Assembly (NCBI GenBank): GCA_963803805.1
Contig: CAWDOD010000002.1
Span: 1,088,001 to 1,152,000 of the forward strand
Origin: an uncultured cyanobacterium
Lineage (GTDB): Bacteria; Cyanobacteriota; Cyanobacteriia; Cyanobacteriales; CAWCAG01
Reading direction: 5' to 3'
Length of the DNA: 64,000 nucleotides
Shown here in pieces: positions 4,873-8,376 of this stretch (position 1 is its first letter; every line of letters starts with the position of its first letter). The notes below the pieces were generated by a model. That model saw nothing but the letters and a program-made list of their open reading frames with translations, was not told where the DNA came from and searched no databases. The translations under genes and the position numbers were made by a program.

Positions 4873-5682
4873 CTAGCTACCGAGGAATGCCACTAAAGGT
4901 TTGAATATGGGGAGCAATCTTTCTTGGGAAGATACCAAGGTGGGAAAAGGGCAACTGCCGTAATCTTCTCCCACTTTGAGGGGAAAAGCCGGTTCTGATT
5001 TTAAGGAAAGGAAAATACCTCCTGCGGCTTGGACAATAACCCAAACAGCAGCAATATCCCACACTTTAGGGGTCGCTTCTACACCTCCTAAAGCTGTGCC
5101 AGAAGCTACTAAAAGGCAATTATAACTAGCAACACCGATTAATCTTATTTTGCAAGGAAAAGGTTCTTTGAGAACGGCTGTACTGCGGGCGCAGAGGTTA
5201 AAGAGATGATTTTGACTGGGGGAATCTTGGCTAGTTTTGATTAGTTCACCATTTTTGTAAGCCCCTGTTGGACCACTTAAGCCTGATTCTCCATACCAGT
5301 AGCCATGGAAAAACTGCTCAAATTCAGGGAAATAGACTGCTCCAAATAGAGGTGTTCCTTGATAAAGTAAGCCCAGGGAAATACCCCAGATAGGAATCCC
5401 TCGCGTAAAGTTAGTTGTACCGTCGATAGGATCTACAATCCAGCACCAGTCATTTTCTGGGAAGATATGGAGAGTTTCTTCTGTAAGAATGCCGTGTTCA
5501 GGAAAACGAGCCGCGATCGCTTTGCGAATTACTTCATCAGCCCATTGATCTGAGGCTGTAACTAATGTGCCATCAGCCTTACGGGTTGCTTGCACCTGGC
5601 CAAAATCCAACTTAAGCTGGCTACCAACTTCTTTGGTAATGGTACGAGTAAAATCTAAAATATCAATCCAAAAATCTTCCAT
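4873..5682 (-). CDS. Inositol monophosphatase family protein
   Basis: Motifs WIVDPIDGTTNF and WDIAA. Confidence 0.93.
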   Translation of the reverse strand: MEDFWIDILDFTRTITKEVGSQLKLDFGQVQATRKADGTLVTASDQWADEVIRKAIAARFPEHGILTEETLHIFPENDWCWIVDPIDGTTNFTRGIPIWGISLGLLYQGTPLFGAVYFPEFEQFFHGYWYGESGLSGPTGAYKNGELIKTSQDSPSQNHLFNLCARSTAVLKEPFPCKIRLIGVASYNCLLVASGTALGGVEATPKVWDIAAVWVIVQAAGGIFLSLKSEPAFPLKVGEDYGSCPFPTLVSSQERLLPIFKPLVAFLGS

Positions 5683-5714
5683 ACTCGATCCTTTTGTGAC
5701 TTGTGAAGTGGTGC

Positions 5715-5771
5715 GCGATTCTTTCTGAGGAGATGCTTCTCCCGAAGGAGGCGCTGCGCAAACGCTAACGC
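5715..5771 (+). repeat. Small dispersed repeat(s) between split HIP1 halves (GCGAT...CGC)
   Basis: GC-rich mini-hairpin stretch (CTCC-CGAA-GGAG, GCG-CTG-CGC) with two related units, in AT-rich intergenic DNA. Confidence 0.55.
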
Positions 5772-5866
5772 CAATAAGAATTTTATACCCATAATCTAAG
5801 GAAAAGAAAACAAGTCAATATCTGCTGGCTATAGAACTATTGGCAGAAATTTTAAGGTAAAATTTT

Positions 5867-5891
5867 ATACCCGACTAATTTGGTCGGGTAT
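5867..5891. promoter_or_regulatory. Rrf2/IscR-type palindromic operator
   Basis: ATACCCGACTAATTTGGTCGGGTAT matches the IscR type-1 consensus ATASYYGACTRwwwYAGTCRRSTAT at 24/25 positions. Confidence 0.75.
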
Positions 5892-5893
5892 GT

Positions 5894-5922
5894 TTGACGA
5901 GTATTGTGAGCTGTGTTACTGT
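5894..5922 (+). promoter_or_regulatory. Putative sigma70-type promoter of the thrC-like/moaD-like operon
   Basis: TTGACG (5894-5899), 17-bp spacer ending in TGn, TACTGT (5917-5922). Confidence 0.6.
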
Positions 5923-5961
5923 TTGTGGAACATTGACAGAAACGAAGATTAGAGTAGAGCT

Positions 5962-7266
5962 ATGACCCAGGTTATCACCCGCGAAAAACAAAGCGATTCG
6001 GCCACTTTTACGAAGCTGGTTTCTAAGGAATCTGGCGCTGAGTATCCCCTCAAGGCACTCCATATTTGCGAAGAGTGCTTTGGTCCTTTAGAAGTTGCTT
6101 ACGACTATGACAAAATTCGTTCTCAAGTAAGCCGGGAAACTATCAAAGCTGGCCCCAACTCGATTTGGCGCTATCGTCCTTTTTTGCCTGTGGCTACGGA
6201 TAACTATATTGATGTTGGCACTGGCATGACTCCTTTGGTTGAATCCAACCGTTTAGCTCGTCGCTTGGGTCTGAAAAAACTCTATATCAAAAACGATGCT
6301 GTCAATATGCCCACCTTGAGTTTTAAGGATCGGGTTGTTTCTGTGGCTTTGAGTCGCGCCCGTGAATTGGGTTTCTCGACAGTTTCTTGTGCTAGTACAG
6401 GGAACTTGGCTAATTCTACTGCGGCGATCGCCGCCCATGCGGGTTTAGATTGTTGTGTCTTCATTCCTGCTGATTTGGAAGCAGGCAAAGTTTTAGGGAC
6501 TTTAGTTTATAGTCCTACGGTAATGGCTGTCGAAGGAAATTACGACCAAGTTAACCGCCTTTGTAGCGAAGTTGCCAATACCCACAAATGGGGTTTTGTT
6601 AACATTAATCTGCGTCCTTACTATTCTGAAGGGTCAAAAACCCTTGGTTTTGAAGTAGCAGAACAACTAGGATGGCAATTACCCGATCATATTGTTGCGC
6701 CTTTAGCTTCTGGTTCTCTCTATACCAAAATCTACAAAGGTTTCCAAGAATTTATCAAAACTGGTTTAGTTGAAGACAAAAAAGTACGCTTCAGTGGCGC
6801 ACAAGCAGAAGGTTGTTCCCCCATTGCTCAAGCCTTTAAAGAAGGAAGGGACTTCGTAACCCCAGTTAAGCCTAATACCATTGCTAAATCTATTGCTATT
6901 GGCAACCCTGCTGACGGTATTTACGCTTTGGATCTGGCTAGGAAAACCAACGGTAATATTGAGTCTGTTACTGACAAAGAAATTATTGATGGCATTAAGC
7001 TTTTAGCTGAAACCGAAGGAATATTTACTGAAACTGCTGGTGGCACAACCATAGCTGTTTTGAAGAAATTAGTAGAAGCAGGTAAAATCAACCCTGATGA
7101 AACCACCGTCGTTTACATTACTGGTAATGGTTTGAAGACCCAAGAAGCTGTACAAAACTATGTTGGCCAGCCTTTGACCATCGAACCCAAGTTAGAAAGC
7201 TTTGAGAGGGCTTTAGAAAGGGCGCAAACTTTAGAGCGCTTGGAATGGCAACAGGTTTCGGTTTAA
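5962..7266 (+). CDS. thrC: Threonine synthase-like PLP (fold type II) enzyme
   Basis: PTLSFKDR PLP-lysine motif, CASTGN, EGSKT, ITGNGLK. Family is secure; actual substrate is uncertain (see findings). Confidence 0.85.
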   Translation: MTQVITREKQSDSATFTKLVSKESGAEYPLKALHICEECFGPLEVAYDYDKIRSQVSRETIKAGPNSIWRYRPFLPVATDNYIDVGTGMTPLVESNRLARRLGLKKLYIKNDAVNMPTLSFKDRVVSVALSRARELGFSTVSCASTGNLANSTAAIAAHAGLDCCVFIPADLEAGKVLGTLVYSPTVMAVEGNYDQVNRLCSEVANTHKWGFVNINLRPYYSEGSKTLGFEVAEQLGWQLPDHIVAPLASGSLYTKIYKGFQEFIKTGLVEDKKVRFSGAQAEGCSPIAQAFKEGRDFVTPVKPNTIAKSIAIGNPADGIYALDLARKTNGNIESVTDKEIIDGIKLLAETEGIFTETAGGTTIAVLKKLVEAGKINPDETTVVYITGNGLKTQEAVQNYVGQPLTIEPKLESFERALERAQTLERLEWQQVSV

Positions 7267-7405
7267 ATAGAGGAATAACTGGCTGACGGGCAACCAATTT
7301 ATGACTATAATTTACCTTGCTACTTCGTTTACATAGCTTTTAAAGTAAAGAGAAAGCAGGTTGCCCTTAAAAAAAATTGATCATTGGTAATTAATAATTG
7401 AAACT

Positions 7406-7681
7406 ATGGCTATCAAGGTATTAATCCCCACTCCCTTACAAAAATTTACTAACTCTCAAGCAGTAATTGAAGGGGAAGGCAAAACTGTTAACGAATTAAT
7501 TGATTCATTAGAAAGTACTTGTCCTAGTATTAAAGGGCGTTTACGAGATGAAGAAGGTAAGCCTCGTCGCTTTTTGAATCTTTATGTAAATGACGAAGAT
7601 ATTCGTTTTTTAAAAGGTGCAGATACTCCTCTCAATGATGGAGATCAAGTTAGTATCGTTCCAGCAGTAGCTGGCGGTTGA
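7406..7681 (+). CDS. MoaD/ThiS/CysO-family ubiquitin-like sulfur carrier protein
   Basis: 91 aa, [12 protein letters not shown] motif, C-terminal VAGG. Confidence 0.93.
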
Positions 7682-7733
7682 AGAATTCAGAATACGAAGG
7701 TAAATCATCGACAACTTAAACAACTTAAGGAAT

Positions 7734-8177
7734 ATGCCAGAAGAAACTGCCCCCCAAGAAAACAAAGCTAAAGCTGCTAAGGCCAAGAAAAAGAAACCCT
7801 CAGCAGTAGAAGATAAACCTTTTACAGAATTTATGGCCCAGGATTTTACCCCGGCTTTGCAGAAAGCTTTATCTGAAGAAGGTATTGAGGATGCTGAGTT
7901 GGATTTAGTGAAAGAAAAATTACCAATAGCTGGTGCAAATTCCGACGAACAATGTTGGCAGTTTATTGGTAAATGGGAAGGAGGAGAACGGCAGTTTAAT
8001 CTTTATTTTCTAGATGAAGATATTAAAGGTCAAAAAGGCTTTTCTTGCTCTACAAATGGGGCATCTCCTAGTACCATTGAGTCTTTTATGATTGATGAGC
8101 GTCGGGTTAATTTACCTTTGTTGGTGATGTATACAGTACAGCGTTTAAATGGGCAGAAGTGGTTGGCGAAAAATTAA
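7734..8177 (+). CDS. DUF2996 family protein
   Basis: EDKPFTEF, IESFMIDERRV and QRLNGQKWL motifs typical of this cyanobacterial/plastid family. Confidence 0.8.
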   Translation: MPEETAPQENKAKAAKAKKKKPSAVEDKPFTEFMAQDFTPALQKALSEEGIEDAELDLVKEKLPIAGANSDEQCWQFIGKWEGGERQFNLYFLDEDIKGQKGFSCSTNGASPSTIESFMIDERRVNLPLLVMYTVQRLNGQKWLAKN

Positions 8178-8290
8178 AGAGTGCTAGTTGCTAATGGCTA
8201 GTTGCTGAAGATACAAATAACTAACTATTACCTATTGCCTGCCTAGCTCCCTACTAAAGCCGCCAAGAGTTTAAATGAGGAGAAACTGCT

Positions 8291-8376
8291 GTGACTACAA
8301 CTTTAGTTATCCAAACAGAAGGAATTCCTTGGACGGTTTCTTTACCTGCGATCGCCTGATGCTGCTTGGGTTAAAA
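8291..8376 (+). pseudogene. Uma2-family endonuclease relic (N-terminus fused to an internal motif)
   Basis: RBS GAGGAG then GTG: MTTTLVIQTEGIPWTVSLPAIA*; overlapping frame reads RSPDAAWVK, an internal Uma2 motif. Confidence 0.6.

Follow-up and report, generated by a model that had tools for sequence, protein, structure and literature searches.

A conserved IscR-type palindrome at the promoter of a probable cyanobacterial MetM/MetO-type homocysteine operon, with a cysteine-less Rrf2 protein as its probable binder

We analyzed a 64,000-nucleotide stretch of DNA from an uncultured cyanobacterium (GenBank assembly GCA_963803805.1, contig CAWDOD010000002.1, positions 1,088,001 to 1,152,000 of the forward strand; hereafter the window) and found a 25-bp palindrome placed immediately upstream of the promoter of two genes, a metM-like gene encoding a ThrC-family enzyme and a metO-like gene encoding a small sulfur carrier. 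The palindrome has the shape of an IscR type-1 site, is a genuine promoter element with deep conservation, and sits at the same promoter position in all cyanobacterial metM loci with readable upstream DNA. We hold with moderate confidence that the two genes form a MetM/MetO-type homocysteine operon and that the palindrome is its operator, probably bound by a cysteine-less Rrf2 protein, which represses the operon and is relieved at shortage of methionine or S-adenosylmethionine (SAM). The gene content, the conservation and uniqueness of the operator and the co-distribution of the genes were observed directly. The interpretation offered in an original prediction, made from the letters of the window alone, was supported in part.

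Results

The operator palindrome and its promoter

As the original prediction had described, the palindrome abuts a TTGACG-17-TACTGT promoter followed by a ThrC-like gene and a gene for a carrier ending in GG; all these elements are present. A direct read of window positions 5867-5891 gives ATACCCGACTAATTTGGTCGGGTAT, in which perfect 9-bp arms flank a 7-nt A/T spacer. The operator (5867..5891, no strand assigned; arms ATACCCGAC-N7-GTCGGGTAT) is defined by its sequence, its logo and a position weight matrix (PWM). For scoring we used the IscR type-1 consensus ATASYYGACTRWWWYAGTCRRSTAT, a string confirmed in print, and the palindrome agrees with it at 24/25 positions, with one mismatch, which reproduces the earlier count. 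Like the type-1 operator of Escherichia coli IscR, it is a 25-bp palindrome of the form ATA-SYY-GAC...GTC-RRS-TAT with the same spacing. A search of the window with the consensus at ≤3 mismatches returned 1 match, and 0/100 dinucleotide shuffles contained any. In the whole 5.3-Mb genome the operator stands alone at this threshold, the runners-up being three sites with 4 mismatches.

The -35 hexamer TTGACG (5894..5899, plus strand) starts 2 nt past the operator. It is followed, after a spacing of 17 nt, by TACTGT (5917-5922), which is preceded by TG at 5914-5915 and thus forms an extended -10 element (TG-n-TACTGT, 5914..5922, plus strand). Because TACTGT agrees with TATAAT at only 3/6 positions, the promoter escaped a simple promoter scanner. 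Transcription would start near 5929, and relative to this putative start the operator extends from about -62 to -38. No Rfam family matched window positions 5600-8300 at E up to 1, and control of the operon by a riboswitch or leader RNA was therefore rejected.

Conservation across cyanobacteria

A scan of the genome collection with the enzyme as query yielded 80 related loci (84-89% identity), which span Nostocales, Chroococcales, Oscillatoriales, Leptolyngbya-like and other named cyanobacteria. The palindrome is found at the same place in 79 of them, and the 80th locus, cut by a contig end, still displays the right half of the palindrome and the -35. We picked 20 further genomes as distant or as missed by the exact-pattern search, and in all 20 the 19-nt core occupies the same promoter position with 0 or 1 mismatch. 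Such conservation across loci settles the question whether the palindrome exceeds chance. The genes upstream of it vary among the 80 loci (the phosphatase-family gene that neighbors it in the window is found there in 0/80); the palindrome therefore belongs to the ThrC-like gene.

In the logo built from 99 sites, A-W-W-C-C-C-G-A-C is separated by seven mostly A/T positions (W7) from G-T-C-G-G-G-T-A-T, and 10 positions are invariant. The TTGAC of the -35 is retained in 89-97 of the 99 aligned sites at a fixed offset from the operator, the -35/-10 spacer is 17 nt long in 85 sites and 18 nt in 14, and TG plus TAnnnT occurs in 99/99, the -10 hexamers being weak (3-4 of 6 matches). In four metM promoters of GC-rich picocyanobacteria (L114-L117), the CCCGAC/GTCGGG arms and the TG-extended -10 are still present, the spacer is G/C-rich, and no TTGAC -35 is recognizable.

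The metM-metO-like gene pair

The metM-like gene (5962..7266, plus strand, ATG at 5962) encodes a 434-aa pyridoxal phosphate (PLP) enzyme of the ThrC family (PF00291, 254.7 bits; TIGR00260, 338.3 bits). It is separated by 139 nt from the metO-like gene (7406..7681, plus strand), the product of which is a 91-aa sulfur carrier of the ThiS/MoaD fold (PF02597, 69.8 bits) ending in AGG. The combination of a ThrC-family enzyme with a CysO-like GG carrier was thus recovered as originally proposed. From its sequence, the enzyme is predicted to be a MetO-thiocarboxylate-dependent homocysteine synthase. It shares 84-89% identity with the 80 cyanobacterial orthologs (85-88% in the Microcystis loci) and 34% with the canonical ThrC encoded elsewhere in the same genome. 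The NCBIfam thrC model does not separate these two paralogs, and cysKM models score far lower on the enzyme or are unlisted. The solved structures nearest to the enzyme are threonine synthases, which match it only from about residue 63. The best solved relatives of the carrier are 4n6e_B and Mycobacterium tuberculosis CysO (3dwg_C). The carrier gene comes next after metM in 78/80 loci, and the remaining 2 end at contig edges shortly past the enzyme gene.

At the N-terminus, the majority sequence of 24 cyanobacterial orthologs displays a zinc-ribbon-like C-x2-C ... C-x2-C pattern. In the window enzyme (residues 1-50, window 5962-6110) both positions of the first pair are Ser (VSKES), and only C36 and C39 are kept. 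Within the 139-nt gap between the two genes lies the sequence CTGACG-17-TATAAT (7283-7311, 10/12 matches), which may represent an internal promoter for the carrier gene.

Predicted homocysteine pathway of the genome and its relatives

The original prediction had pointed to a canonical thrC, a MoeZ-like E1 and a JAMM protease as expected companions of the pair, and all of them are encoded in the genome. The second ThrC has 367 aa (335.7 bits), the protein combining ThiF and Rhodanese domains (MoeZ-like E1) 391 aa (271.7 and 54.4 bits, respectively), and the JAMM (Prok-JAB) protein 152 aa (89.5 bits). The E1 and the JAMM protease are presumed, from sequence, to serve this carrier. We also detected homoserine kinase ThrB (297 bits), MetH (1596 bits) and two CysK/CysM-sized paralogs. 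The genome is 97.4% complete, so missing genes are reported as not found rather than absent. MetA and MetE were not found in it, MetX gave no convincing match (best 22 bits), and no true member of the Cys/Met-gamma PLP family (PF01053; MetB, MetY) was detected, the best being a 28.9-bit fragment; none of metA, metX, metB and metY was thus found, in line with what had been anticipated. Among relatives, all 5 examined picocyanobacteria without metM possess 2-3 full-length PF01053 genes (407-441 bits), and of 5 examined metM carriers 4 are without PF01053 genes and 1 has both. As far as sequence can tell, this gene content is the genomic signature of the MetM/MetO route, and the pair most likely makes the methionine precursor homocysteine.

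The actinobacterial precedent mentioned in the original prediction does exist. It is the O-phospho-L-homoserine route of Streptomyces albulus, which involves MetM and MetO together with MoeZ and Mec (Hasebe et al., 2024, Appl Environ Microbiol 90:e01247-24, as cited in the accessible parts of PMC12172450 and PMC13759103). According to the same citation in PMC12172450, MetM was found in Streptomyces and has homologs in cyanobacteria, and the portion of GapMind 2026 available gives MetM, MetO, Mec and MoeZ as proven in Streptomyces. PMC12172450 gives the identity of Microcystis ThrC to S. albulus MetM as 51.6% and that of its neighbor to MetO as 47%; it reports that threonine induces both genes and methionine reverts the induction, and describes the locus as devoid of a SAM riboswitch. 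The Synechocystis steps preceding MetH were called undetermined in the available part of a 2020 review (PMC7133116). The proposal that the pair fills this cyanobacterial gap is therefore upheld in substance and loses its novelty: it is well supported that the pathway reading is right, but it is already in print.

As in S. albulus, a ThrC-family enzyme is followed by a GG carrier, the genome encodes a rhodanese E1 and a JAMM protease, and no acyl-homoserine route was found in the window genome. Unlike in S. albulus, the E1 and protease genes are unlinked here, and the activity is a prediction from sequence. Moreover, Streptomyces metM is governed by a SAM riboswitch (PMC12172450, accessible text), whereas the cyanobacterial operon carries a putative protein operator at its promoter.

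The single Rrf2 protein as candidate regulator

The genome contains one PF02082 gene, which encodes a 147-aa Rrf2 protein (119.5 bits) and is followed by cbiB (adenosylcobinamide-phosphate synthase, 284.8 bits); the region with both genes is G000:C10:464682-468062 (L001:399-1887, minus strand). The protein exceeds the cut-off of the Rrf2 superfamily model TIGR00738 (123 bits vs 73.3) and has the architecture of the superfamily, i.e., a winged-helix N-terminal domain plus a dimerization helix. Its nearest solved relatives in both sequence and fold are the IscR proteins of T. potens and E. coli, followed by CymR, the fold matches to IscR and CymR having a probability of 1.00. It remains below the cut-offs of the IscR model TIGR02010 (102.9 bits vs 207.55) and of the CymR model NF047409 (90.6 bits vs 195). 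Its recognition helix PYLEKL aligns to SYLEQL of IscR, and PYLEKL, Y9 and the wing residues R59-G60 are invariant in 15 orthologs; the IscR residues aligned to these positions are DNA contacts. Judged by sequence, a dimer of this only Rrf2 protein is most likely the binder of the operator.

The Rrf2 protein of the window genome has no cysteines, 15/21 orthologs are also without them, and no Cys column is conserved. The ligand set of the IscR [2Fe-2S] cluster (three Cys, one His) is accordingly missing, and the protein cannot hold an IscR-type Fe-S cluster. Fe-S sensing was thus rejected, and of the IscR/Rrf2-type regulators considered in the original prediction an Fe-S IscR is not supported. 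The orthologs share a conserved C-terminal extension (DLYYDARSWQA..GE...F, then two Ile/Val). In the AlphaFold monomer (mean pLDDT 72) the last 7 residues fall below 50, which is compatible with a flexible tail and no proof of it. A complex prediction with two Rrf2 copies and the MetM-like enzyme scored 0.00 and 0.00, which is evidence neither way. Downstream of the Rrf2 gene, and on its strand, lies the cobalamin-synthesis gene cbiB, an order also seen in 12/20 other cyanobacterial genomes. As MetH is the sole methionine synthase found, this constitutes a second, weak tie of Rrf2 to methionine.

The candidate resembles E. coli IscR in its winged helix. Unlike [2Fe-2S]-IscR, it has no cluster ligands, its target would be the methionine pair and not isc/suf, and its regulon would comprise one operon. 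With CymR, which regulates cysteine metabolism in Bacillus subtilis and Staphylococcus aureus and has no cluster, it shares the Rrf2 fold without Fe-S and a proposed target in sulfur amino-acid metabolism, and the CymR structure 2y75 is among its best fold matches; unlike in CymR, the operator is of IscR type and the CymR model score is below the cut-off. The protein may belong to the family of Synechocystis Slr0846, as a putative ortholog.

Co-distribution of metM and Rrf2

Of 301 sampled genomes of the phylum, 119 contain metM, namely 100/100 genomes of the order, 19/28 other members of the class and 0/173 outside the class. The Rrf2 query found matches in all 119 metM genomes. The nine class members without metM gave no Rrf2 match at E up to 1e-10 and contain no exact palindrome. 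Among 91 picocyanobacteria, 35 encode both genes, 1 metM only, 1 Rrf2 only and 54 neither; both exceptional genomes are draft assemblies with a completeness of 94% and 86%. The upstream neighbors of metM differ among the 80 loci, and no regulator gene keeps synteny with it.

Regulon size

Scanning the whole genome with the PWM derived from the 99 sites, we obtained a score of 39 for the metM operator and 12.2 for the next best sequence, so that the operator is the sole site. With a loose pattern, the metM site was recovered in 40 of 44 mostly complete genomes. The same pattern returned 18 extra matches vs 27 with a reversed-pattern control. The six best extras fall in coding DNA (creatininase-like, murC-like) or in the rplA-rplJ spacer with low PWM scores; each of them either is coding or scores ≤17.5. 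A wider regulon was rejected, as the genome holds no second PWM site and the extras are fewer than the control matches. The palindrome was likewise not found upstream of cys, suf and rrf2 genes, where the original prediction had suggested looking for it, and we are left with a single-site regulon. Three genomes share a near-operator core, GAC-AATTAAT-GTC, in a conserved coding region (L160, L161 and L162, each 1501-1519). The product of this region starts like what we take to be a creatininase-family protein. The PWM scores are ≤8, and it therefore looks like coding conservation and not like a second operator.

No operator-like site was found upstream of the Rrf2 gene in 21 genomes, all best PWM scores being negative; autoregulation through the palindrome was therefore rejected. 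Whatever its identity, the regulator appears, by these sequence scans, to serve one operon.

Neighboring genes

Two further genes flank the pair. The carrier gene is followed by a gene encoding a DUF2996 protein with a lysine-rich N-terminus (7734-8177; 188.7 bits), a homolog of which occurs in 17/80 related loci, so the synteny is partial. On the other side, an inositol-monophosphatase-family gene (4873-5682, minus strand) is oriented away from the operator region. It reaches neither the HisN cut-off (132.5 vs 275) nor that of CysQ (73.5 vs 229), and in none of the 80 related loci is it a neighbor of metM.

Discussion

Proposed mechanism

What binds the operator, in which direction it acts and to which signal it responds are inferred here as follows. 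ThrB would make O-phosphohomoserine, the presumed substrate of the ThrC-like enzyme, which would obtain its sulfur from the small GG carrier, in the form of a C-terminal thiocarboxylate. This carrier would be charged by the unlinked ThiF-rhodanese (MoeZ-like) E1, with the JAMM (Mec-like) protease on hand, and the homocysteine produced would be converted to methionine by B12-dependent MetH. Transcription of the operon would start at a sigma-70-type promoter that has an extended -10. There a bound Rrf2 dimer would most likely act as a repressor, obstructing sigma region 4 and the alpha C-terminal domain, and would release the operator once methionine or SAM is short. The Rrf2 protein might sense methionine status by binding a small ligand or by means of its conserved, putatively flexible C-terminal tail. 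Relief of repression at methionine shortage agrees with the finding that the threonine induction in Microcystis is reversed by methionine, as given in the accessible part of PMC12172450.

Alternative explanations

Several observations count against this reading, and we weigh them here together with the alternatives. The operator could be real and yet bound by a regulator of another family, the Rrf2 protein doing something else, e.g., exerting the psaAB control that the title of Midorikawa 2009 names; we consider this unlikely. In its favor, the upstream DNA of the Rrf2 gene holds no autoregulatory copy of the motif in 21 genomes, and type-1 sites in E. coli are bound only by cluster-bearing IscR, a rule by which a protein without cysteines, and so without a cluster, is not expected at them. 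The co-occurrence of metM and Rrf2 may rest on one or a few loss events among non-independent relatives and may mirror the genome reduction of one lineage, the streamlined picocyanobacteria having lost many genes anyway. Furthermore, two picocyanobacterial Rrf2 matches cover the N-terminal part of the protein only, and weak Rrf2 matches without metM occur in 21/173 genomes outside the class. On the side of Rrf2 stand the operator itself, which keeps 24/25 positions of the IscR type-1 consensus with identical half-site spacing, the IscR-like reading helix of the only Rrf2 protein of the genome, the presence of both genes together in 35/37 picocyanobacteria having either, and the finding of no regulator gene syntenic with metM in the 80 loci. 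Less likely than repression, but a serious alternative, is activation of the operon by Rrf2, which would recruit RNA polymerase from about -50 when methionine is scarce. A site just upstream of the -35 can serve activation, and apo-IscR activates the suf promoter from such a site. The operator here lies wholly upstream of the -35, the -10 hexamers match at 3-4 of 6 positions, and the four GC-rich picocyanobacteria have the operator and a TG-extended -10 with no recognizable -35. Still, 89-97 of 99 sites retain TTGAC and all have the extended -10, and since promoters that combine a well-kept -35 with an extended -10 typically do without an activator, repression is favored. In addition, with only 2 nt between the palindrome and the -35, a dimer on the operator would be expected to collide with sigma region 4.

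The remaining alternatives, together with a few more observations that tell against the preferred reading, concern the enzyme. That it is a genuine second threonine synthase and deaminase, with the carrier belonging to another pathway, strikes us as improbable. Its TIGR00260 score of 338 bits is far over the cut-off of 167, which the canonical copy also exceeds, and its nearest solved structures are threonine synthases. The available part of the Microcystis study (PMC12172450) also reports threonine synthase and threonine deaminase activities measured in vitro, and no clear homocysteine formation by Microcystis ThrC with Na2S, the carrier thiocarboxylate not being supplied. Against such a second synthase speak the canonical thrC in the same genome, only 34% identical, the carrier gene following in 78/80 loci, the failure to find another homocysteine route in the genome, a distribution complementary to that of PF01053 enzymes, and the reversal of the Microcystis induction by methionine (accessible text of PMC12172450). 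The pair could instead represent a CysM/CysO-like route making cysteine from O-phosphoserine, as the original prediction had allowed. The M. tuberculosis system is similar in its fold-type-II PLP enzyme, its CysO-like carrier and the predicted feeding by a protein thiocarboxylate, and the best solved relatives of our carrier include M. tuberculosis CysO in complex with CysM. Unlike CysM, however, the enzyme lies in the ThrC branch (338 bits with thrC vs far lower or unlisted scores with cysKM models), and its expected substrate is O-phosphohomoserine. Two CysK/CysM-sized paralogs are present elsewhere in the genome, and the loss of the pair tracks the gain of MetY/MetB-type, not cysteine, enzymes; this complementary distribution disfavors the phosphoserine variant, to which we assign a very low probability.

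Novelty and implications

Whereas the enzyme part is of a known kind (MetM/MetO), the newly described part is the operator, an IscR-type element that probably serves a cluster-less Rrf2 protein as a switch dedicated to the cyanobacterial homocysteine operon. In the literature searched, which did not cover subscription papers, Midorikawa 2009 included, we found nothing on a link of Rrf2 to metM/metO or on the operator sequence, and no description of the regulation of cyanobacterial methionine synthesis. For experiments the operator is a precise handle: every model strain offers a single 25-mer at a single promoter, with a single candidate protein.

If the link to Rrf2 is true, one of the 11 transcription-factor families shared by all the thermophilic cyanobacteria of PMC10775510 would gain a target, and an IscR-type DNA code would be read by a protein without a cluster. 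It would also provide a tight native switch for engineering and explain the effects of threonine and methionine on bloom-forming Microcystis, as reported in the accessible part of PMC12172450. We propose, more tentatively, that the cysteine-less Rrf2 protein could be the missing regulator of methionine synthesis in cyanobacteria, a one-operon repressor that has kept to one 25-bp operator from a time before the main lineages of cyanobacteria diverged, replaces the SAM riboswitch of Streptomyces and senses methionine status without Fe-S. Should this be the case, the photosystem phenotypes reported for this regulator could be secondary to an imbalance of methionine and SAM.

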